Assembly (NCBI GenBank): GCA_035698285.1
Contig: DASSBY010000018.1
Coordinates: forward strand, 1-34,472
Direction: 5' to 3'
Length of the DNA: 34,472 bases
DNA from: Fimbriimonadales bacterium
GTDB lineage: Bacteria > Armatimonadota > Fimbriimonadia > Fimbriimonadales > ATM1
Each line of letters starts with the position of its first letter. Positions within the stretch are counted from its first letter, which is position 1. The notes below the pieces were generated by a model, which ran no database searches, was not told the origin of the DNA, and worked only from the letters and a program-made list of their open reading frames with translations. Below, one piece after another: positions 2 to 33,057 of the stretch. Made by a program: the position numbers and the translations under genes.

Positions 2-148
2 CTCGTTCGGGAAATCGCAAAGCTCGCCGACGGCGGAGGCGGTGGCTCGCCCGAATTCGCGCAGGCAGGGGCCAAGGACGTATCCAAAATCGCTGCTGCC
101 ATGGCGGCGGCGCCCGACATTATCAAGGCACAAACCGGAGGAGACTGA
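2..148 (+). CDS. alaS: 3' end of alanine--tRNA ligase (partial, truncated by the window edge)
   Basis: Frame 2 reads LVREIAKLADGGGGGSPEFAQAGAKDVSKIAAAMAAAPDIIKAQTGGD-stop. The G-run followed by P..AQAG matches the C-terminal AlaRS motif as I recall it from E. coli (GGKGGGRPDMAQAGG). The TGA at 146-148 shares one base with the next ATG. Confidence 0.5.
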   Translation, partial: LVREIAKLADGGGGGSPEFAQAGAKDVSKIAAAMAAAPDIIKAQTGGD

Positions 149-858
149 TGCGTCGGCGCGCACTCACCATTGCCGAGGTTCTCGTCGTTCTTCTGGTGAT
201 CGCTATTGCGGCTGCGGTTGTTGCCCCAGTCTGGGCACACGTGAAAGACGCTGCCCGCCGAGCCGCGTGCCTTTCCAAACTCCGGAAGCTTGGAGTAGGC
301 ATGGCGATATACATCGAGGAAAGCGATAAGAAACTTCCGCTCTCGGCAGGCTGGGTCGCAGCTGTATCTGCTGGCAGCGACTTCGCCATCATGCACTGCC
401 CCAGCTCATTGCCGGCCGGGATAGCCTCCGGCGTCGACGTAAGCTACACCTACAACGGCTACTTAAACGGCTATCCAATAACTCAAATTCCAAGCTTGGC
501 ATCGACTGTGGCCGTTTGGGAGGGCATGGGAAAGGCCGTTTCGCGAGGCAATCCCGCAAACCCACGTCTCATCTGCCCAGACCCAGCGTCACCCTGCGTT
601 TTCCAGCCTCAAGGAGGCCCGAAGAGCGCCTTCGATATCCCCAAGGGCACGATGTGGGTTCACGGGCGCGGCGCAAACTTTCTCTTGGGAGACGGCCACG
701 CGCAATGGCGAAGACTTGGGCCCAAGGAGGGGAAGCCTACCAACCCACGAATCGATCCCTTTATGGTTTACGATCGCAAAGGCGTTGCGCTCGAAGCTTG
801 GACGGACGACGGTACGGGCACGGGGAAAGCGCTTCTATTCATGCCGCGATTTCATTGA
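148..858 (+). CDS. Prepilin-type N-terminal cleavage/methylation domain protein, H-X9-DG (DUF1559-like) family
   Basis: The N-terminus MRRRALTIAEVLVVLLVIAIAAAVVAP is a pseudopilin-like hydrophobic helix. The C-terminal part VHGRGANFLLGDGHAQW fits H-X9-DG. The stop is TGA. Confidence 0.8.
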   Translation: MRRRALTIAEVLVVLLVIAIAAAVVAPVWAHVKDAARRAACLSKLRKLGVGMAIYIEESDKKLPLSAGWVAAVSAGSDFAIMHCPSSLPAGIASGVDVSYTYNGYLNGYPITQIPSLASTVAVWEGMGKAVSRGNPANPRLICPDPASPCVFQPQGGPKSAFDIPKGTMWVHGRGANFLLGDGHAQWRRLGPKEGKPTNPRIDPFMVYDRKGVALEAWTDDGTGTGKALLFMPRFH

Positions 859-1402: not shown

Positions 1403-1612
1403 CTACTTGTTCGGACCTTTGGCTCCACCTTTGATGATGAACTCATCGGGGATCGGTGGCGCCACGGCAGAGCCGGGACGCGGCGGGGGCGTCTTATCGA
1501 GGCCGGTATCGGTCGAAGCACCCATCTTCATCCAGAGCAGAATGACGATTCCCACGGCAATCGCCACAATGCCCCATATGACAACCGGGGACTGCTTTAC
1601 CTTAGATCCCAC
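1403..1612 (-). CDS. Small hypothetical membrane protein (69 aa)
   Basis: There is one clear TM helix (VVIWGIVAIAVGIVILLW) followed by a Pro-rich tail. The start overlaps the end of the upstream gene by 16 nt. I recognise no family. Confidence 0.45.
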   Translation of the reverse strand: MGSKVKQSPVVIWGIVAIAVGIVILLWMKMGASTDTGLDKTPPPRPGSAVAPPIPDEFIIKGGAKGPNK

Positions 1613-2508
1613 AAGTATTGATCTCCGTCGTAAGCCAGGCCCTGAAAGTTCCGGCGAACGTCACAGCCGGCGCTGATGTTGCCGATGCGCATGGTTTTGG
1701 TATGCCCATCCACAAAGGCGATGTTGACCTGCTTCGAATGATACGGATACAAGCCGCCCCATTCGAGCCAATAGTTGGAATCGTTCGGATTGCATCCCAC
1801 GCACCAGCCAACGCCGTACGTCTGCCACCTGCCATTATTGCCATTGCCGGTGTAGTCGGATATCGGCTCCATGAACTGCTGGTTTTCGTCCCGGACGCAT
1901 GGCGCTTCGATAACCCAGTTCCCGCCGCCGGTGGGATCTCCATTCGGTTTACGCAGCCACATGCTGTCGCCGAACAGAATCGTTGCGCCCGGTTGCGCGA
2001 TTCTGCCTGCGTTGATGGGCGCCGAACCAACATAAGTCCCGCCCGGGTCTTGACGCGTTATCCACGGACTTAGGAAGTCGTAGTTGTAGCCGAGATCGGT
2101 GCGCGAGAGCCAATAGTAGTAGAAGCTCGGGTCGCTCTTGTCTGCCGGCCGGTCGTTCGGATCCATCGACAAACCTTGGTCTGTCGCGTTGGGGTCCGCC
2201 GGGCATCGGAAAACGTAGTAACTCTGAACGTAGGAGTAAATGAGTTCGCCCCAAACGTAGTCGGGCCGTCCAAAGCCCCATCCGGGACCATTGATACTGC
2301 CTTGATTGGCGTGGGGAAGGCCATCATCGTGGTCTCCCATGTACATCATCATGGACTTGGTGACCTGGTTGAAGTTGGCCAAACAGCTGATTTTCTTTGC
2401 AGCCTGCTTGGCGGCTGCGAACACGGGGAATAGTATTGCCGCAAGAATGGCAATGATTGCTATGACAACTAGCAATTCGATTAGCGTGAAAGCCTTTCGA
2501 TTGCGCAT
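1597..2508 (-). CDS. Prepilin-type N-terminal cleavage/methylation domain protein, H-X9-DG (DUF1559-like) family
   Basis: MRNRKAFTLIELLVVIAIIAILAAILFPVF is a canonical prepilin-like N-terminus. YHSKQVNIAFVDGHTKT fits H-X9-DG. AAGGAGG lies 7 nt upstream of the ATG. Confidence 0.88.
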   Translation of the reverse strand: MRNRKAFTLIELLVVIAIIAILAAILFPVFAAAKQAAKKISCLANFNQVTKSMMMYMGDHDDGLPHANQGSINGPGWGFGRPDYVWGELIYSYVQSYYVFRCPADPNATDQGLSMDPNDRPADKSDPSFYYYWLSRTDLGYNYDFLSPWITRQDPGGTYVGSAPINAGRIAQPGATILFGDSMWLRKPNGDPTGGGNWVIEAPCVRDENQQFMEPISDYTGNGNNGRWQTYGVGWCVGCNPNDSNYWLEWGGLYPYHSKQVNIAFVDGHTKTMRIGNISAGCDVRRNFQGLAYDGDQYLWDLR

Positions 2509-2607
2509 GAGCGTGCCTCCTTGATTTTACGAATGGCTATCGCCCTGCAGCGACAGCATGAAGGAGATTATAACGCCGTTTTCAGCAAAAGCAATCCCTA
2601 TCGGGAA

Positions 2608-2811
2608 CTATTCGCCGCTTCTTTGACGGTATTTTTTGGCCTGATCGGGGTCGACCTTGCGCATTCGGCGCAATAATTCGTTGTCCCCGCCCGGCTTTGG
2701 GACCTGCCGCTTGGCTGGCCCCTCCTCGTCGCCCGGCTTGCGCTCAGGCGTCGGAAGGTCACGCTCGCGGCGTTCGATCGATGCGATCCCATGTTCGTTT
2801 ATGTACTTCAT
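2608..2811 (-). CDS. Pup-like small protein modifier, UBact-type (67 aa, C-terminal ...YRQRSGE)
   Basis: The protein is short, charged and looks disordered. Its tail ELLRRMRKVDPDQAKKYRQRSGE-stop matches my memory of the UBact C-terminal consensus (R-[TS]-G-[EQ] terminus). Its ATG overlaps the upstream msrA TGA stop as ATGA. Confidence 0.65.
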   Translation of the reverse strand: MKYINEHGIASIERRERDLPTPERKPGDEEGPAKRQVPKPGGDNELLRRMRKVDPDQAKKYRQRSGE

Positions 2812-3422
2812 CGTATTCTGCAGGCGCCGCCGGCGTGCTTACCGTAATATTGCTGGTGATAGTCCTCGGCCATCCAGAAGGTACCTGCTTTGGTGACTCG
2901 CGTACCGACAGCCGTCCCTCCGGCCCCGATCGTATCTATTTTGTGCTTGGCCAAAGCTGACTGCTCATCGGAAAAAGTGAAGATCTCGCTTCGGTACTGC
3001 TCACCGGGAGAGCACTGCCGACTCGGGTTATGGATTTCAAAGAAAACGTTCAACAGCTTTTCGTACGTCACTTTCGAAGGATCGTACTCGACGAGAACCG
3101 ACTCGGCATGCCCCGTCCGTCCGGAACACACTTGCTCATAAGTCGGCGAAGCCGTAACGCCGCCCGTATAGCCGACTGCCGTCGCAACAACGCCTGGGAC
3201 TTGGCGGAACTCCGCCTCGATTCCCCAAAATCACCCTGCTGCAAACAAAGCAAGCGCGTGCCCGTCGGCCAGAGCCTTAGCATCGCTATCGAGCCTCGTC
3301 GTGACTCCGCCGGGGTGGGTACCGACGCCGCTCGTGTCCGTCCCGCTGCCCATGTTTTGTATCCCTAGACCGGCGACCGCTGAGGCTGCAAGACCCATCG
3401 TTATCCAGTTCATCGTTCTCAT
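2808..3422 (-). CDS. msrA: Peptide-methionine (S)-S-oxide reductase MsrA with in-frame TGA (3231-3233) at the catalytic Cys position; candidate selenoprotein with an N-terminal signal-like segment
   Basis: ORFs 3231-3422 and 2808-3131 are in the same frame. Read-through gives ...HALALFAAG-[TGA]-FWGIEAEFRQVPGVVATAVGYTGGVTASPTYEQVCSGRTGHAESV...EDYHQQY. The paralogue at 4187-4657 has [10 protein letters not shown] at the same place. AGGA lies 9 nt upstream of the ATG at 3422. Confidence 0.7.
3195..3227 (-). promoter_or_regulatory. Candidate bacterial SECIS hairpin downstream of the msrA UGA
   Basis: The mRNA reads UGA-UUU-UGGGGAAUCGAGGCGGAGUUCCGCCAAGUCCCA. The lower stem is UGGG/CCCA. The upper stem is GGCGG/CCGCC with apical loop AGUU, which starts 19 nt after the UGA. 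Confidence 0.5.
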
Positions 3423-3543
3423 CAGTACTTATCCTAATGCCCGCTGCAAGTATACAGTTCCCTTCGGGCCCAAAGTCCTGCCGAATCCGTTCGCTGAGCC
3501 TCGATTTCGAAGCAATCGGGCAAACTGAGGCGTAGAGTTCGGT

Positions 3544-3560
3544 GGACGTTAGAAACGTCC
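3544..3560. promoter_or_regulatory. Perfect 7-3-7 inverted repeat GGACGTT-aga-AACGTCC in the divergent msrA / Met-rich gene intergenic region (operator or leader hairpin candidate)
   Basis: The repeat is read directly from the sequence and is extendable to 9 bp with one G-U pair. It lies about 50 nt upstream of the ATG at 3609 and is followed by the tandem ACAAGC-ACAAGC-ACAAGG (3577-3594) that runs into the SD. Confidence 0.4.
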
Positions 3561-3608
3561 GCGGCAGACAAAGTCAACAAGCACAAGCACAAGGAGATCG
3601 ACAACATT

Positions 3609-4142
3609 ATGAAAACGCTAGCGATCGCGGCCGTTTTGGCCGCCGTAGTTGCCGCCCAAGCTCAGCCCCAAGTGGACATGAAACCGCCTCCCGAAATGCA
3701 GAAGGTGGCATGGATGGTGGGCGAGTGGAAGGGCAATATGAAAATGCACATGCCCGGCATGGATCAGCCGATGGACAGTGCGAGCACCATCTCGGCGAGA
3801 ATGGGCGTCGGAGGCCGCTATTTGGTCGTCAATTTCATGTCGGCCATGGGCGACATGGGCGCCACGGAGCACATGGAGCTCATTACCTACGACCCAGCCC
3901 AGAAGAAGTGGGTCTGCTGGGGCTTTGACTCCGTCGCCCCAGGGACGATGGAATCTTCCGGCGACCTCATGGGCAACAAAATGGTGGTGACGAGCAAACC
4001 GATGACGATGCCCGGCGGTCCCCCGGATACGTTCCGAACGACCGTGACCAAGAAATCGGACACCGAGTTTGATTTCCTGCTCGAGCACAAAGTGAACGAC
4101 GCTTGGACGAGCATGATCGAGGGCACGTTCACTAAGTCGTAG
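3609..4142 (+). CDS. Secreted DUF1579-like protein, unusually methionine-rich
   Basis: The signal peptide is [19 protein letters not shown]. The core WMVGEWKG...GGRYLV...[17 protein letters not shown] resembles the DUF1579 family. I count 20 Met in 177 residues. AAGGAG sits upstream of the ATG. Confidence 0.75.
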
Positions 4143-4186: not shown

Positions 4187-4657
4187 ATGGAAATCGCAAC
4201 TTTCGCAGCAGGATGTTTCTGGGGTGTAGAAGACCTCTTCCGCCAAATAGAGGGCGTGACCGAGGCAATTAGCGGATACACGGGGGGAACGCTTGTCGAT
4301 CCGACGTACCAGGACGTATGTTCCGGAACCACCGGCCACGCAGAAGCCGTGCAGATAAACTTCGACCCTGCTGTCATTCCCTACGAAAGCCTGCTCCAAG
4401 TTTTTTGGGAGACCCATGATCCGACCACGCTTAATCGCCCAGGGCCGGACGTGGGACGTCAGTACCGGTCCGCCATTTTCTATCATTCCGAGGAGCAAAG
4501 AGAGGCTGCCACGGCTTCCCTCCTTGCAAGGCAGCAATGCCTCGATCGGCCGATCGTTACGGAAATAGCCCCCGCAACGCCCTTCTTCCCGGCCGAGGAA
4601 TACCATCAGCAGTACCTGATGAAACACGGCCTTTCCTCCTGCCATATTCGGCAATAA
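4187..4657 (+). CDS. msrA: Peptide-methionine (S)-S-oxide reductase MsrA (Cys form, no signal peptide)
   Basis: [24 protein letters not shown]...GYTGG...[19 protein letters not shown]...QYRSAIFY...EEYHQQYL is canonical MsrA. I chose the ATG at 4187 rather than the GTG at 4151. Confidence 0.92.
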
Positions 4658-9025: not shown

Positions 9026-10243
9026 TCAAGGCGCCGGGACGTACAGTACGCGCACCCAAAAAAGCTCATCCGTGATTTTTGGACCGTAGGCAACGGGCCG
9101 TGGATAAGAATTCTGGTTCTGGTGGCATTCCAAGTCGTTCTGATAATGAATGGAAGCTGTTAGCTTCGTGCCTTTCGGCAAAACCGGGGGCTGGCTAAAC
9201 ATATAGCTGCCAATGTAAGTCACGTTCCACGGATAAACCCTCAGGATCGTTTTTGCCGGATCAGTCGGCGGTGTCGCCGTAAGCCTAACTTCGACAGTAT
9301 AGTCGCGCGCCTCTGGAATGACGCCAACCACTTGAATTCCCTGCGAAAGCGTCTCTTCGTCCGAAAAGTTTGGCGTCTCCAAAATGGGAACCTTGATATC
9401 TCGAGTTCCGAGATTCATCTGCCTTACTTCTCGATAAGCTCCCGACGCGAAGGTGAGCCCGAGGTCGAAGTTTCCGTCAGCAGCGGTCCCATTGGGGCGA
9501 TACTGCACTTGCACCAGCAGGTTATCGCCCGGTTTCAGGGTCTTGCCAACGCCGTCCGGCAGGCGCCATGGCCCATTCCCGATTGTCCATACGCCGATAT
9601 ACTCCTCCGTCTGGGCTTCGAAGCTGGCGGCCGTCTCGTAGCCTGGCTCGGGCGTTTTCACGTCTTCTGCGCGCCCCTTCCCCGCCGTATCGATACCGAT
9701 GGTAACGCTTCGTATCACCGAAGGATTTGCGGGCGCAACGCTAAATCCGATCAATCCCCGCTTCTTAGTGATATCCGCAGGGATAACGAACGTTTGCCAA
9801 TATGTCGGTCCTTCCGCTCGCACGGTTACGCCCTTCTGCGACAGCACTATGGAAGCCTTTGGTGGCGGAGCAAATTCGGGACTCGGCGGCATGTCGCTGG
9901 CGTTGCCCTTTGCCATTCCCGCGCGGATCCATTCCTGGATTAGAACCGCTTCATCGTCGGTAAGCGGCGATGCGGGAGTCACCCTGCCATAGTCCGATGT
10001 CGCCTTATAAGGAGGCATGGATCGATCCAAAACTACAGACTTAATCGTCTCGGCCCGTCGGCGTACATCGTCATACGTCGTTAGCGAGAACGGCGCGGCG
10101 CCGTCCGGACGGTGGCATGGCGTACACTTGGCAAAAAACACGTGGGCTAGATCGCGCGTGTAGGTCACGTCGGCACTCTTTGAAAAGCCGAGCGCGGACA
10201 CAATAATGGCAGCAAACCACGCCGGGCCCAAGAGCGATCTCAC
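9026..10243 (-). CDS. Secreted c-type heme-binding (CXXCH) protein with a large beta-rich C-terminal domain (possibly PHM/DBH-like fold)
   Basis: There is a signal peptide, then FAKCTPCHRPDGAAPFSLTTYDDV...RSMPP. I recall this heme-c module preceding copper-monooxygenase-like domains in Acidobacteria and PVC proteins. The usual His clusters are not evident here. The start codon is GTG. Confidence 0.55.
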   Translation of the reverse strand: MRSLLGPAWFAAIIVSALGFSKSADVTYTRDLAHVFFAKCTPCHRPDGAAPFSLTTYDDVRRRAETIKSVVLDRSMPPYKATSDYGRVTPASPLTDDEAVLIQEWIRAGMAKGNASDMPPSPEFAPPPKASIVLSQKGVTVRAEGPTYWQTFVIPADITKKRGLIGFSVAPANPSVIRSVTIGIDTAGKGRAEDVKTPEPGYETAASFEAQTEEYIGVWTIGNGPWRLPDGVGKTLKPGDNLLVQVQYRPNGTAADGNFDLGLTFASGAYREVRQMNLGTRDIKVPILETPNFSDEETLSQGIQVVGVIPEARDYTVEVRLTATPPTDPAKTILRVYPWNVTYIGSYMFSQPPVLPKGTKLTASIHYQNDLECHQNQNSYPRPVAYGPKITDELFWVRVLYVPAP

Positions 10244-10298: not shown

Positions 10299-10916
10299 CT
10301 ACCTTGCGATTATCAAGATAAGGATCCCGATCAGAATCAGGATCATCAGTTCTCGGTTAGAAAAGCCTTCCTGCGGGTACGCAACTTCCACGTAGTCGCC
10401 CGGGCTTAGCGCAACAGGTTCGGCTGAAGCCTGAAGCTTTTCTAAATCCACCACAGTCGTGACCTTCTTGCCGTTCTTGTCCGTCCGCGTTATCTTGATA
10501 ACGTTCGGCTTTTCGGTCGAAAACGGCTTCGCTTCGGCTAGGGCCTGCTTGATCGTCATCCCGTCCTTGTACTGCAAATATCCCGGCTTGGACACCGCAC
10601 CGTGAACGCTCACATACTTGGCGGGGTCTCTTACCGGAACGTCGATAACGGAATCCGCCTCGACGAGCGGAGTCGGACCAAGACGTGAAAGATCTACGAC
10701 GCGGTCGGCATCTCTGGATCGGACGGTAACCAACATCTCATCGCCCTGCTTGGACACTCCGCCCGCGAGGGCGACAGCGTCGCGCACGCGCATCCCTTCC
10801 CGGAAAGGCACGTCTCCGGGCGTGTTAACGGCGCCTTTCACCGTCACGAAAGTGCCGGCGAATGCGCATTGGGCTAGGGCCAGGACAGCCGTAAGTCCGC
10901 TAATTTTGAACATCAT
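10299..10916 (-). CDS. SLBB (soluble-ligand-binding beta-grasp) domain protein, polysaccharide-export-like, with C-terminal TM anchor
   Basis: Only the last 205 codons of the 654-aa ORF are credible: MMFKISGLTAVLALAQCAFA is a signal peptide. Two SLBB-like units follow (FVTVKGAVNTPGDVPFREGMRVRDAVALAGGV and YVSVHGAVSKPGYLQYKDGMTIKQALAEA), then a hydrophobic tail. AAGGAGGA lies upstream of the ATG at 10916. Confidence 0.7.
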   Translation of the reverse strand: MMFKISGLTAVLALAQCAFAGTFVTVKGAVNTPGDVPFREGMRVRDAVALAGGVSKQGDEMLVTVRSRDADRVVDLSRLGPTPLVEADSVIDVPVRDPAKYVSVHGAVSKPGYLQYKDGMTIKQALAEAKPFSTEKPNVIKITRTDKNGKKVTTVVDLEKLQASAEPVALSPGDYVEVAYPQEGFSNRELMILILIGILILIIAR

Positions 10917-11069
10917 CTCGTTGGATTCCTCCTTGGAACAAAAGGTTAATCCTTTCATACTCCGGGTGCCGGGGCAAATATGCACTTTAGTTTCATTTAG
11001 CCACATCAGGCTCCCGCAACGCCGTCGGAAATCGGACCCCAGCAGGTACAATAGGGGCCTCCAAATACG

Positions 11070-11092
11070 TGCGCGCTCCGCATCGGCGCGCA
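11070..11092 (+). promoter_or_regulatory. Hairpin in the gyrA leader (TGCGCGC-tccgcatcg-GCGCGCA); TACAAT -10-like box at 11046-11051
   Basis: The 7-bp inverted repeat is perfect and sits 20 nt upstream of the gyrA TTG start. Its function is unknown. Confidence 0.3.
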
Positions 11093-11111
11093 TTGGCGTA
11101 AGGACCGGATT

Positions 11112-13562
11112 TTGCCCGAAAACGAACCCACGGAACCCCTGATCATTCCCGTAGCCGACGAAATGCGGCGCAGCTATGTGAACTACGCGATGAGCGTCAT
11201 CATCGCAAGGGCCTTGCCCGATGTCCGCGATGGCCTCAAGCCCGTCCAGCGCAGAATTCTTTACACCATGCTCCAGGGCAACTGGACGCCCGACCACGCC
11301 CGAACCAAGAGCGCGAAGATTATCGGCGATTGCTCGGGCAACTACCATCCCCACGGCAACGACGCGATCTACATGACCATGGTGCGCATGGCGCAAGACT
11401 TTTCGCTGCGTTATCCGCTCGTCGACCCCCAAGGCAATTTCGGCAGCATCGACGGCGACGCCCCTGCGGCCTTCCGCTACACCGAAGCCCGCCTCAGCAA
11501 GGTCGCCATGGAGATGCTGGAAGATATCGACAAAGAAACCGTCGATTGGACCCCGAATTACCTGCAGACCATGAACGAGCCGCTTGTCCTCCCTGGTAAG
11601 TTCCCGAACCTCATCTGCAACGGCACGCAAGGTATCGCCGTCGGCATGGCGACCAATATGCCGTCGCACAATTTGAACGAAGTCGTCGACGCGATTCTCT
11701 TGCGGATGGATAACCCGAACTCGACACCGGAAGAAATCATGAAAGTCCTTCCCGGACCCGACTTCCCCACGTACGGCATGATTTTGGGCACCAAAGGCAT
11801 CCGCAGCATGTACGAAACGGGCCGCGGAAGCGTGGTCATGCAGGGAAAGACGGCTATCGAGCCAACGGACGGCGGGCGGTCCGTCATTGTCATTAGTGAA
11901 ATCCCCTATCAGGTAAACAAAACAACCCTCATTCAGCAGGTAGCCGACATTATCCGAAACAAAAAGATGGAGGCCATTTCCGGAATCGTCGACCTGAGTG
12001 ACCGACGAGGAATGAGGATTGAGATTTCCATCAAGCGCGAGGGCAACCCCAACAAGGCCCTCAACTATCTTTATAAACACACGCTGCTGCGAACTTCCTT
12101 CGGCGCTATTCTGCTGAGCCTCGTGGACGGCGTCCCGAGAACGGCGCCCATCACCACGCTTCTCGACGAATACCTCCGGCATCGCAAAGAAGTAATCGAG
12201 CGGCGCACCAAATTCGAACTCTACAGAGCGCTCGAGGAGGCGCACATCAGCGAGGGTTACCAAATCGCGCGCGCCAACCTCGACGATGTTATCCGCATCA
12301 TCCGCGCGGCCGAGGATCCCGAAGATGCCCGGCGCGAACTCGTCCGCAACTTCGCCATGACCATGTTCCAGGCGAACGTCATCCTCAACATGCAGCTCCG
12401 CCGCCTCACGAAACTGGAGCAGGCCAAGCTGGAAGAGGAATACAAAAAGATCTTGCGCAAGATCGCCGACCTGGTCGATATTCTAAGTGATCCGCACCGA
12501 ATAGAGCAAATCTTAAAGGCCGAACTTGAGGAAATGCGCAAGAAGCACGGCGACGAGCGGCGCACGAAAATCCTCCCTATGGAAGCCGGCGAAATCGGCG
12601 ACGAGGACATGATCCCCGAAGAAGAGGCCATCGTCTCTATCAGTCGCGACGGCTACATCAAGCGCATGAGCCTCGATGCCTATCGAGACCAGCGTCGCGG
12701 CGGCAAAGGCGTTATCGGTCAAACCATGAAAGAGGCGGACGAAGTCGGGCACCTTTTCCAGGTCAGCACGCACCACTTTATTCTTTTCTTCACAGACAAG
12801 GGCCGCGTCTATCGGCTGAAGACGTACGAAATCCCGGAGTCCGGCCGCTACGCGAAAGGCACGCCGGTAATCAACTACATCCAAATCGAGAGCGGCGAGA
12901 TGGTAACTGCGACGCTCACCGTGAAAGATATCCGCGGCGAGGGATTCTTGGTTATGGCCACCAAGATGGGCGAAGTAAAACGCACCCCCATCAGCGCTTT
13001 TGCGAACCTGCGTACAAACGGCCTTCGCGCTTTTGATATCGAAGAGGGCGATGAACTGGCCTGGGTTATGCGGAGCACCGGCGACCAGGATATCCTCATG
13101 ATTAGCCGAAAAGGCATGAGCATTCGATTCAACGAACACATGCTGCACGGTCGCTCGCGCGCAGCCGGCGGTGTTCGCGGCATGAATCTGCGAAAAGGCG
13201 ACGAAGTCGTATCCGCGATGATCGTGGAGGAACCAGACCTGAGTCTTCTCGTCGTAGGCGAGAACGGCTTCGGCAAGCGAACTCCATTGTCCGAATATCG
13301 GCCGCAAAACCGCGGCGGATACGGCCTCATAACGATGAACGTCACCGCAAAGACCGGACCTGTCATCGGCGCGGAAATCGTCGAACAAGGTGACCAACTC
13401 GTCATCATGAGCACGCACGGAAAGGCCATCCGCCTTCGCATCGACGAAATTCGAACCGTAGGAAGAATTGCGCAGGGTGTCAAGCTCATCGATCTGACGA
13501 AGGGCGACCAGGTGGCGTCCATCGCTCGCGTGATAACCGAGAGCGACGACGGCGCCGAGTAA
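11112..13562 (+). CDS. gyrA: DNA gyrase subunit A
   Basis: 816 aa. It has YAMSVIIARALPDVRDGLKPVQRRILY, the active-site region AAFRYTEARL, the GyrA box QRRGGKG and C-terminal beta-pinwheel repeats. The start codon is TTG. Confidence 0.96.
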   Translation: MPENEPTEPLIIPVADEMRRSYVNYAMSVIIARALPDVRDGLKPVQRRILYTMLQGNWTPDHARTKSAKIIGDCSGNYHPHGNDAIYMTMVRMAQDFSLRYPLVDPQGNFGSIDGDAPAAFRYTEARLSKVAMEMLEDIDKETVDWTPNYLQTMNEPLVLPGKFPNLICNGTQGIAVGMATNMPSHNLNEVVDAILLRMDNPNSTPEEIMKVLPGPDFPTYGMILGTKGIRSMYETGRGSVVMQGKTAIEPTDGGRSVIVISEIPYQVNKTTLIQQVADIIRNKKMEAISGIVDLSDRRGMRIEISIKREGNPNKALNYLYKHTLLRTSFGAILLSLVDGVPRTAPITTLLDEYLRHRKEVIERRTKFELYRALEEAHISEGYQIARANLDDVIRIIRAAEDPEDARRELVRNFAMTMFQANVILNMQLRRLTKLEQAKLEEEYKKILRKIADLVDILSDPHRIEQILKAELEEMRKKHGDERRTKILPMEAGEIGDEDMIPEEEAIVSISRDGYIKRMSLDAYRDQRRGGKGVIGQTMKEADEVGHLFQVSTHHFILFFTDKGRVYRLKTYEIPESGRYAKGTPVINYIQIESGEMVTATLTVKDIRGEGFLVMATKMGEVKRTPISAFANLRTNGLRAFDIEEGDELAWVMRSTGDQDILMISRKGMSIRFNEHMLHGRSRAAGGVRGMNLRKGDEVVSAMIVEEPDLSLLVVGENGFGKRTPLSEYRPQNRGGYGLITMNVTAKTGPVIGAEIVEQGDQLVIMSTHGKAIRLRIDEIRTVGRIAQGVKLIDLTKGDQVASIARVITESDDGAE

Positions 13563-21093: not shown

Positions 21094-22467
21094 TTATGGC
21101 GCCATCGTCCACTTGACCTGATCGATCTTGACAGTCCACGGAAATGCCGAAAGTCCGCCATCCTTTCGATAGGAAAGCCGCGCGCGCACATGCCCGTTCT
21201 GCAGGAATCGCGACGTGTTCTCCCCGAGATTCACATCGACGACCGCGTCCGAGGTGCCGAGGTTTCGCGAATCGACCGGCACCCACGCTCCAGCGACGTA
21301 GTCATACAAGTCGATTATCTGTATTATTTGCGTTCGCGTTGCGGAGCTCTCGATTTTGAACTGAAGGATTGAGACCGAATTTGCGGTCGTCGTCCCGTCG
21401 ATCTCGACCTCTATCGGCGCCTGAAGCGGCGTGACCGTCCGGCCAAGTCCAATATTCAACGCCTCATCGTCGCTGTCCACAAGCTGCCCCACCCCGCCGG
21501 AAATGACGTTGCCGCGCAGGATAGTCAACGCAGAGGGTATCGCGTGCTGCACGGTAAAAGGATCGAACATCGCACATGTGAAACGGTTTCCGCGTTCGGC
21601 GGTACAAATGATGAATCCCTTTCGCCACTTCACAGAGTCGACATAGTAAGGCAAAGCGAATGACAGTTGCTCTGCGCCCGTTTCCGTATCGGCAAAGCTT
21701 AATTGAAAGTCTTCGAACGTTATAAAGTGTGTTCCGTCCGGAGAAAATGCGAATAACGGTCCTGGCAAATCATACAGAAACTCACCCCGTGATAATGAAT
21801 ACATCCAGTTATCCGGGTAATCCTGGATAGCGACATGATCATCATCGGACGAAATGGCGTATGCCACCTTCTCAGGTTCCACATACAAGAGCGTATGACT
21901 CTTTCGATCCCAGATACGGCTTAGTTGGGCGTCGTTAGCCCACTCGTTGGTGGCGAATAAACTTCCATCCTCGGACAAAACACACTGTGCGAGACCGCCA
22001 CCCGAGTCGAAGTAGTCGTAAAATCCTGTATTGAGATCGAGAACGCTGACGAGGGAATAGCTTCCGTGCTCGTCATAATCATTTTCCGCTACGCCACAGA
22101 GTTCGATGCCCTTGTAGGTCATTGGGGAGCCATCCACCGCGCGACTTTGGACTAGTTTCCCTTGGTCGAGATCCCAGGTGTCCACCCAGGCCAATCGTCC
22201 GACGACTGCATGAGTTCCATCCGCAGAAAATGAGGCGCTCGAAACGTAGTTGCCGAGGTACAGCCCTGGCTCGCCAGTCAGCAGGTCGCAGCAATAGGCT
22301 TGAGCATCCCCAAGTGTTCTCTGGATAAAGCAACCCGAGTCCGATGCGGCAAGGCACATCTCCCAAGTTTGGCCGGTATGTGACCACAAGATATCCGGCG
22401 AACCCTGGCCAACCATCGCACAGGGCACAATAAGCAAAAAAGAAAGCAGCAGGTAGCGACGTCTCAT
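21094..22467 (-). CDS. Secreted beta-propeller-like protein, shorter paralogue with the same C-terminal domain (457 aa)
   Basis: The signal peptide and first residues parallel the neighbour (QGSPDILWSH vs QASPDIIWSR). The C-terminal block FDPFTV...VISGGV..LV.SDD..LN.GLGRTVTPLQAPIEVEIDGTT...WTVKIDQVKWTMAP is nearly collinear with 18802-19330. Confidence 0.7.
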   Translation of the reverse strand: MRRRYLLLSFLLIVPCAMVGQGSPDILWSHTGQTWEMCLAASDSGCFIQRTLGDAQAYCCDLLTGEPGLYLGNYVSSASFSADGTHAVVGRLAWVDTWDLDQGKLVQSRAVDGSPMTYKGIELCGVAENDYDEHGSYSLVSVLDLNTGFYDYFDSGGGLAQCVLSEDGSLFATNEWANDAQLSRIWDRKSHTLLYVEPEKVAYAISSDDDHVAIQDYPDNWMYSLSRGEFLYDLPGPLFAFSPDGTHFITFEDFQLSFADTETGAEQLSFALPYYVDSVKWRKGFIICTAERGNRFTCAMFDPFTVQHAIPSALTILRGNVISGGVGQLVDSDDEALNIGLGRTVTPLQAPIEVEIDGTTTANSVSILQFKIESSATRTQIIQIIDLYDYVAGAWVPVDSRNLGTSDAVVDVNLGENTSRFLQNGHVRARLSYRKDGGLSAFPWTVKIDQVKWTMAP

Positions 22468-32265: not shown

Positions 32266-33057
32266 ATGCTTAAGACCAACCGTGCCGCCTTTACTCTTAT
32301 CGAGTTACTGGTCGTAGTAGCGATCATCGCCATCCTCGCAGCTATCCTATTTCCCGTTTTCAACTCCGCCAAGGAAGCGGCCAAGCGAACCACCTGCTCG
32401 ACCCATATGCGCCAGCTCGCCACGGGCGTCACGCTCTACACAGACGACGCGGACGGCTGCCTCCCGATGGGGACCAATTACGGCGTCCCGAGCGGCGACA
32501 TCTATCGAATTTGGACGGCCCAAGTGTTTCCCTATGTGAAGGGCAAGCAGGTTTTCGTCTGCCCTGGAAGCGAGGGCAAATTCGGCGATACGTGGGCGAC
32601 GCGCGGCGAGATGAACATCGGCTACACGGGCGTGACGGCCTATGATCCGGAAGGCTGCATCGAGGGCGAAGGCGACAGCGCCGGCTGCGAGGGCTTCACG
32701 ACCATCGCAAACGCGAACAAGATGGAGGAGCCTTCGCGCACCGCCCTCTTCGCCGAAACGCCAGGCGGCGATTTGGCCCTGAAGTACCGCGGCTATACCT
32801 TCAGCCCTTACAACGGAATCGTGCATCCGTCAGAGTCTCGGCTAAGCCCGCCCATCACCTCCGACCGCGACGTCATCCCCGAGATGCAGTACCTCGAGCC
32901 CTCCCAGCTAAAACCCATCTGGTGCCGTCACAACCGAACCGGTAGAAACACTGGCACGTCGAGCATCATTTTCGCCGACCTCCACGCGAAACCACACTCC
33001 GCGAACTCCATCCTCGCGATGGACCGAGGCGCCAACATCATCTGGCGCTTTCGGTAA
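32266..33057 (+). CDS. Prepilin-type N-terminal cleavage/methylation domain protein (DUF1559-like, degenerate H-X9-DG)
   Basis: The N-terminus is MLKTNRAAFTLIELLVVVAIIAILAAILFPVF. The C-terminal part IIFADLHAKPHS has DL where the family has DG. Confidence 0.85.
   Translation: MLKTNRAAFTLIELLVVVAIIAILAAILFPVFNSAKEAAKRTTCSTHMRQLATGVTLYTDDADGCLPMGTNYGVPSGDIYRIWTAQVFPYVKGKQVFVCPGSEGKFGDTWATRGEMNIGYTGVTAYDPEGCIEGEGDSAGCEGFTTIANANKMEEPSRTALFAETPGGDLALKYRGYTFSPYNGIVHPSESRLSPPITSDRDVIPEMQYLEPSQLKPIWCRHNRTGRNTGTSSIIFADLHAKPHSANSILAMDRGANIIWRFR

Follow-up and report, generated by a model that had tools for sequence, protein, structure and literature searches.

A UBact-family modifier gene, probably relocated behind a selenocysteine-type msrA gene, in a lineage of Fimbriimonadales (Armatimonadota)

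The stretch of DNA analysed here (34,472 nt of a Fimbriimonadales contig, taken at its full length and hereafter called the window) contains a 67-codon gene of the UBact family, placed directly behind an msrA gene that has an in-frame TGA codon at the position of the catalytic cysteine. The reading that we hold to be probable, with fairly high confidence, is that the gene encodes a functional UBact tag, that it was relocated behind this selenocysteine-type (Sec-type) msrA and is co-transcribed and translationally coupled with it, and that its ligase and proteasome partners are unlinked. Since its partner genes are retained at other places in the genome, the locus is a curiosity of gene order and not a new system.

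UBact was reportedly described by Lehmann, Udasin, Livneh and Ciechanover in BBRC in 2017; it is a Pup-like protein tag of Gram-negative phyla, with Glu or Gln at the C-terminus. To our knowledge, UBact conjugates have never been demonstrated experimentally and UBact is a computationally defined tag; the conjugation chemistry is established for Pup in Actinobacteria.

The UBact gene and the Sec-type msrA gene preceding it

The coding strand of the tag gene is the minus strand (Table 1), and its 67 codons, followed by a TAG stop, encode the protein MKYINEHGIASIERRERDLPTPERKPGDEEGPAKRQVPKPGGDNELLRRMRKVDPDQAKKYRQRSGE. The C-terminus reads ...KKYRQRSGE (...DPDQAKKYRQRSGE), with the stop located directly after RSGE. 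HMM searches clearly indicate the relationship of this protein to UBact: the NCBIfam equivalog model NF033388 ('ubiquitin-like protein UBact') gave 66.5 bits against a cut-off of 35, and the Pfam model PF20513 gave 66.4 bits against a cut-off of 27.8 (E = 1.8e-18). The initial annotation had recognised a UBact-type modifier with an R-S-G-E end, which both models and the motif present in the homologues bear out, and had proposed a search with the UBact and Pup models alike; UBact was found far above the cut-offs, whereas the Pup model was absent from the Pfam matches at E <= 10, which comprised only UBact and a sub-threshold DUF3563. A database search yielded 186 homologues, and PF20513 was found in 186 of 186; where the sources give names, these are UBact proteins of Fimbriimonadales and Armatimonadota MAGs. 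In an alignment of 60 homologues, Y-R-Q-R-S-G does not vary and the residue after it, at the C-terminus, is E or Q, and the C-terminal half of the protein is almost invariant, the terminal RSGE included; the best 80 of the 243 loci found in GTDB species genomes end in RSGE (32/80) or RSGQ (48/80). Judged by these matches, the window ORF is a genuine UBact-family modifier belonging to an already catalogued family, and not a chance ORF. Armatimonadota-type UBact loci are also found under archaeal names ('Candidatus Caldarchaeum sp.', 'uncultured archaeon'), namely P0010 and L054 (CAWHLK010000023.1), which are probably mis-binned or mislabelled MAG contigs.

Table 1. Features of the window around the UBact gene (positions in the window; L009, L013 and L014 are sibling loci)
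Feature	Position	Strand	Basis or remark
UBact CDS	2608..2811	-	NF033388, PF20513, 186 homologues, dN/dS
msrA with in-frame TGA, candidate selenocysteine MsrA	2808..3422	-	PF01625, TIGR00401
ATGA overlap, msrA stop TGA / UBact start ATG	2808..2811	-	sequence
TGA at catalytic Cys position (G-U-F-W-G)	3231..3233	-	translation; also in L013, L014
Candidate SECIS-like hairpin, apical GGCGG-AGUU-CCGCC	3194..3228	-	17 nt past TGA; inside coding sequence
Prepilin-type N-methylation/DUF1559 gene	1597..2508	-	PF07963, PF07596; 99 nt past UBact, own strong SD
DUF1579 gene, divergent	3609..4142	+	PF07617; same place in L009, L013
Second msrA, Cys-type (GCFWG)	4187..4657	+	PF01625 211 bits

With the in-frame TGA translated as Cys, the product of the gene preceding UBact scored 171 bits with PF01625 and 162.5 bits with TIGR00401 (cut-off 108.1). 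There is one in-frame TGA, whose context AAG*FWGIE corresponds to the catalytic Cys of GCFWG, and TGA is kept at this codon in the orthologues of two sibling MAGs, MGR_bin364 (L013, 3450-4040) and TH_ant_mag_80 (L014, ~743-1378), at a protein identity of 61-66%. A PMSR domain, an in-frame UGA aligned to the catalytic Cys and the conservation of this UGA in orthologues, the features by which a selenoprotein MsrA is recognised, are all present. The N-terminal ~25 residues of the Sec-type MsrA are hydrophobic and could form a signal peptide or a membrane anchor. In the available gene calls, the gene appears as fragments of 63, 71 and 107 aa (JGI) or as a 174-aa protein with no Pfam match recorded (NCBI). 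The candidate SECIS-like hairpin is located 17 nt past the TGA in all three msrA genes (window, L013 and L014), with no difference in the apical stem; its fold energy is unexceptional (z = -0.52), and an Rfam scan revealed no match for it, giving tRNA-Pro only. A gene for SelA (PF03841) is located in TH_ant_mag_80 at 7704-9050 of contig L009 (minus strand), ~6 kb from the Sec-msrA/UBact pair; SelA was seen in this sibling contig only, and its closeness to the pair supports the predicted presence of a working Sec system in the lineage.

The Cys-type msrA is 156 aa long in the JGI copies of the locus and is present in L013 too. The trio of Sec-type msrA, divergent Cys-type msrA and DUF1579 gene, found in the window and in L013, resembles a small cluster for Met-sulfoxide repair that combines Sec and Cys paralogues. 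The prepilin-type gene behind UBact is one of three prepilin-type N-terminal-methylation/DUF1559 genes in the 34 kb, at 148-858 (+), 1597-2508 (-) and 32266-33057 (+); this family is typically expanded in Planctomycetota and Armatimonadota. Farther along the window, a 654-aa minus-strand ORF (10299-12263) overlaps gyrA (11112-13562, plus strand); the true SLBB-domain gene is shorter, being 219 aa long on the JGI contig L001.

The junction between msrA and UBact is TAG-C-ATG in both siblings (L013, L014), as tight as the ATGA of the window. A Shine-Dalgarno-like purine run was not found in the 20 nt upstream of the UBact ATG, in contrast to the downstream prepilin-type gene, which has AAGGAGG 6 nt before its own ATG, and a simple promoter scan revealed no promoter-like sites in 2400-3700. 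The pair possesses the traits expected of coupled genes, that is, a stop/start overlap or near-abutment, no independent Shine-Dalgarno sequence, and preservation of the arrangement in relatives; UBact is packed against msrA in a manner that fits translational coupling, and the coupling to the TGA-containing msrA proposed in the initial annotation on the basis of the ATGA overlap is in keeping with both the window and the sibling junctions. A programmed frameshift fusing MsrA to UBact was also considered and rejected; a conserved fusion of this kind is excluded because the relative frames differ, the window having an overlap and the siblings a +1 nt spacer. Given that UBact lacks a separate ribosome-binding site and that its start codon overlaps the stop of a UGA-containing gene, it may be that only those ribosomes which decode Sec and finish MsrA can reinitiate on UBact. 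We consider it improbable that UBact translation is gated by Sec in this way; if it were, the supply of a degradation tag would be tied to selenium status and to oxidative-stress-driven msrA expression, and the pair would make up a hard-wired triage module of the kind 'repair first, tag for degradation second', undescribed for any Pup-like system.

Gene order around UBact in Armatimonadota

Scanning of the GTDB species genomes with the UBact alignment gave 243 loci, of which the best 80 (L013-L092) were examined together with 10-kb flanks; all of these 80 come from species-level genomes of Armatimonadota, and their neighbours were classed by tblastn with a ligase seed and by clustering of all neighbouring ORFs. 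Among these best 80 of the 243 loci, a gene of the Pup_ligase family (PF03136) is located directly 5' of UBact and in the same orientation in 72, and a gene for a proteasome subunit (~250 aa) directly 3' of UBact in 64. The product of the downstream gene matches PF00227, is TIGR03690-like and contains the HGTT active-site motif. Judged by these counts, the succession of PafA/Dop-family ligase, UBact and proteasome subunit is the canonical, ancestral order in Armatimonadota. AAA ATPases were not among the recurrent neighbours of UBact in the 80 loci with their 10-kb flanks, and no AAA gene, of the Mpa/ARC type or other, was found next to the ligase, UBact and proteasome loci that were examined. 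Only Lon is present, 1 kb upstream in L010. There was no clearly detectable second proteasome subunit near the canonical UBact loci; a second proteasome-family gene (228-230 aa, weak Pfam match), which follows the first subunit, is present in the near clade only (L181, 7175-7861; L183, 971-1663), and tblastn gave no match to it among the 64 canonical loci.

The near clade, taken as the 14 species nearest to the window by UBact similarity, lacks the downstream proteasome gene in 14 of 14 cases, and three contexts of UBact were distinguished in it. The first retains the ligase directly before UBact (L016, L018, L019, L021, L024 and L027-L030). In the second, UBact stands alone next to a GNAT gene, with Sua5 and DnaE coming after (L015 and L017; the Sua5/DnaE part also occurs in the Logan contigs L098-L100), and two Pup_ligase paralogues are located 3-7 kb off or on another contig. 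In L015 (2872-7104) and L095 (3167-7392), the two paralogues are split by two small unannotated genes, and UBact stands apart from them, at a distance of 3 kb in L015 and on a separate contig in TGS_ARM1. The third context, Sec-type msrA, UBact and prepilin-like gene in this order, was found, among the best 80 of the 243 loci, only in the window, MGR_bin364 (L013) and TH_ant_mag_80 (L009/L014); it is also seen in the identical JGI copies of the window arrangement, L001-L008. The adjacency of msrA and UBact is therefore limited to 3 of the 80 species genomes (the best 80 of 243), which are all close relatives. The initial annotation had left it to be seen whether this synteny recurs in related genomes; it does so in two sibling MAGs, but among the 80 genomes it is confined to that sub-lineage.

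In these three genomes, the dN/dS ratio of UBact is 0.069-0.082 for the window against each of the two siblings, with a dS of ~2, at which synonymous sites are near saturation, and 0.092 between the siblings (L013 and L014); the ratio for msrA in the same genomes, 0.10-0.14, is much like it. Strong purifying selection acts on UBact at its new site.

One may suppose from the long-preserved pairing that the locus is a dedicated repair-or-degrade module, in which the synthesis of UBact is tied to that of MsrA and, via UGA, to Sec decoding; either irreparably Met-oxidized proteins would be tagged for degradation, or MsrA and its substrates would be the targets of UBact. The junction has indeed stayed tight in three genomes despite saturated synonymous sites, which also fits selection for linkage, UBact is devoid of its own Shine-Dalgarno sequence, and two msrA genes are clustered with the DUF1579 gene. 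The flanking DUF1579 and pilin genes, however, are conserved as well, and shared ancestry explains the adjacency because these neighbours have been kept too; moreover, the arrangement is restricted to the three closely related genomes counted above (best 80 of 243), the sister arrangement puts UBact by the unrelated GNAT, Sua5 and DnaE genes, and an MsrA with a hydrophobic N-terminus may be located in a different compartment from the tag. On this balance, a dedicated module is unlikely. The adjacency is more likely a by-product of the break-up of the locus, because the same clade also moved UBact to the unrelated GNAT/Sua5/DnaE site, and a link between the tag and Met-sulfoxide repair is not supported beyond co-expression.

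Ligase and proteasome genes away from UBact

Pfam scans of the ~45 larger ORFs of the window revealed no Pup_ligase, Proteasome or AAA domains, and tblastn of the window with an Armatimonadota ligase and with proteasome subunits gave no match; the PafA/Dop enzyme, Mpa-type ATPase and proteasome with which UBact is expected to cluster are not found among the scanned ORFs, and the earlier statement that partner genes are lacking within 34 kb holds within the reach of these searches. Two ORFs, 21094-22467 (457 aa) and 9026-10243 (405 aa), were tried as divergent PafA/Dop candidates and rejected, having no Pup_ligase, proteasome or AAA match at E <= 0.1. The 457-aa ORF, on the minus strand between WD40-repeat and epimerase genes, has no Pfam or NCBIfam match even at relaxed thresholds.

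A near-clade ligase profile was run against a protein collection, and the matches were traced to their contigs; a search for proteasome subunits supplied P0268, P0284 and P0266, described below. MGR_bin364 (GCA_013816225.1) encodes UBact (MBA3726386.1), a PafA/Dop homologue (MBA3727282.1) and a proteasome subunit (MBA3726080.1, P0268), the three accessions being within ~1,200 of one another; UBact is located on JACDEQ010000144 and the ligase (P0148) on JACDEQ010000359, in the order hydantoinase, Pup_ligase, DinB, so UBact does not stand beside the ligase. TH_ant_mag_80 encodes UBact (MGI8924284.1), a proteasome subunit (MGI8924248.1) and a ligase (MGI8924299.1, 15 numbers past the UBact accession). 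Its proteasome gene is on JBPCLO010000038 (44.7 kb), the same contig as the msrA-UBact pair, where P0284 at 6.4-7.2 kb is followed by a weaker proteasome-family gene, the two spanning 6.4-7.9 kb. MBA3726386.1 and MGI8924284.1 carry the NCBI name 'ubiquitin-like protein UBact'. A 65-aa ORF before the proteasome gene in the sibling contig L181 was considered as a second UBact and rejected, its translation being unlike UBact; by eye, it looks like a fragment of glyoxalase/VOC type. In both sibling MAGs, then, a PafA/Dop-family enzyme and a proteasome are found in the same genome as the tag. The orphan status assigned to the gene in the initial annotation consequently fails beyond the locus itself, and the search for pafA, dop and prcAB homologues suggested there, for which the absence of any ligase from the genome would have counted against the reading, recovered both ligase and proteasome genes in the siblings.

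Several observations bear on the population of the window itself. The ligase P0143 and P0241, a member of its cluster, show the hydantoinase-ligase order once more and come from the JGI samples 3300047147 and 3300047676, and the proteasome subunit P0266, which is followed by a second proteasome-family gene, comes from the JGI sample 3300047154; each of these three samples contains a UBact identical to that of the window. The GC content is 0.580 in the 14-kb ligase contig L097 and 0.569 in the window; in tetranucleotide composition, this contig correlates with the window (r = 0.97) about as closely as does L001 (0.98), a contig of the window's own population with an identical UBact. In a third-party MAG of NCBI, the ligase HET6644582.1 and the proteasome subunit HET6645172.1, whose locus tag is VFG65_06715, both fall in the protein clusters of the window population. 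A scan of metagenome contigs with a proteasome-subunit profile gave at least 80 loci; among the loci listed, none came from the JGI samples of the window, which possibly lie outside that collection. From sample co-occurrence, composition, homologous arrangement and the sibling genomes, we infer that the window population also carries a ligase and a proteasome.

The enzymes examined (P0143, P0148, L015:2872-4341, L015:5713-7104 and L018:8555-9982) are homologues of both PafA and Dop, scoring ~392 bits with the Dop model (cut-off 492) and 311-327 bits with the PafA model (cut-off 551). The Armatimonadota enzymes are thus below both equivalog cut-offs, the UBact-adjacent type being nearer to Dop, and their NCBI name is 'PafA2 family'; their ligase activity is assumed. 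Among the best 80 of the 243 loci, a Gln-ended UBact accompanied by a single adjacent enzyme was found in 43 species loci, and because of this, one enzyme is suggested to perform both deamidation and ligation. The idea that a terminal Gln goes with two nearby Pup_ligase paralogues was rejected, there being no correlation and 43 Gln-type loci having a single enzyme; for the same reason, 'Glu = no Dop needed' is not readable from these loci.

The loss of linkage might also be taken to mean that the tag, presumably disordered, acts in this clade without a proteasome or a ligase, as a regulator or a non-degradative mark. Such a role would explain why the proteasome gene is no longer linked, and would resemble the pupylation reported for proteasome-lacking Corynebacterium; the whole near clade (14 species loci) is without a proteasome gene next to UBact, no Mpa-like ATPase was found in any locus examined, and a review describes a proteasome-independent role of pupylation in the sporulation of S. 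coelicolor (PMC8223512). Proteasome genes have been kept, however, in both sibling MAGs and in a sample with a window-identical UBact, and lost linkage is not lost function; we regard this role as quite unlikely. That UBact here is a stranded remnant, decaying or non-functional and deprived of a working ligase partner, is very improbable: the lack of partner genes in the 34 kb and the sub-cut-off scores of the partner enzymes would agree with it, but a dN/dS of 0.07-0.09 at a dS of ~2 largely refutes it, and the almost invariant C-terminal half with its terminal RSGE and the intact ligase and proteasome genes of both sibling MAGs also stand against it.

Proposed mechanism and comparison with known systems

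The preferred reading, a relocated and functional UBact tag, can be put as follows. The host is an uncultured Fimbriimonadales (Armatimonadota) bacterium, in whose clade the ligase-UBact-proteasome cluster has been dispersed; in one sub-lineage, comprising the window and the two sibling MAGs, UBact would have landed directly behind the Sec-type msrA. It would now be co-transcribed with msrA and, possessing no ribosome-binding site of its own, would probably be translated by termination-reinitiation at the ATGA. By homology with Pup, the unlinked PafA/Dop-family enzyme may activate the C-terminal Glu and attach it to lysines of substrate proteins, which may then be passed on to the unlinked proteasome. 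It is plausible that, through co-expression with msrA, the tag supply would rise with the oxidative-stress response.

The locus adds nothing on the chemistry of UBact. What it shows is that the Armatimonadota core order of ligase, tag and proteasome subunit can come apart without loss of the tag, and that capture of the tag gene by an oxidative-repair operon is possible. Should the coupling to the Sec-type msrA prove regulatory, it would give natural access to the question of when a Pup-like tag is deployed in a Gram-negative bacterium; if not, this is an ordinary gene in an unusual place.

Compared with the UBact already catalogued, the window gene is the same in size, HMM match, YRQRSG[E/Q] end and host phylum (Armatimonadota), and differs in being located away from the PafA/Dop and proteasome genes and joined, operon-like, to the 3' terminus of a Sec-type msrA. 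With the Pup-PafA-Dop-Mpa-20S system of Actinobacteria it shares a short, presumably disordered tag with a Gly-Glu/Gln end, partner enzymes of the Pup_ligase family (PF03136) and a 20S-type proteasome subunit (TIGR03690-like). Unlike Pup (PF05639), the window ORF has no Pup HMM match and ends in RSGE, where Pup ends in GGQ or GGE; the enzymes here are under the Dop and PafA cut-offs, and no Mpa was found in the neighbourhoods examined. As regards the gene preceding UBact, the MsrA of Clostridium (Alkaliphilus) oremlandii contains selenocysteine at the catalytic position (PMC4333827, PMC4479559); the window gene likewise encodes a bacterial MsrA, in which catalytic-position selenocysteine is predicted, but the latter has a hydrophobic N-terminal extension, stems from a different phylum and precedes UBact.

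Oxidative stress is broadly connected with the Pup-proteasome system (PMC8223512). The initial annotation knew of no described link between a pupylation-like tag and Met-sulfoxide repair, but co-regulation at the regulon level is known in Corynebacterium glutamicum, where the oxidative/heat-stress sigma factor SigH induces pup and pafA2 along with msrA and msrB (PMC3489674). In C. glutamicum, such co-regulation of a Pup-like tag with Met-sulfoxide repair is achieved at separate loci through a regulon, whereas in the window it would be achieved through a shared operon with overlapping stop and start codons. New here are this gene context and the dispersal, in one clade, of the simple three-gene core of Armatimonadota.
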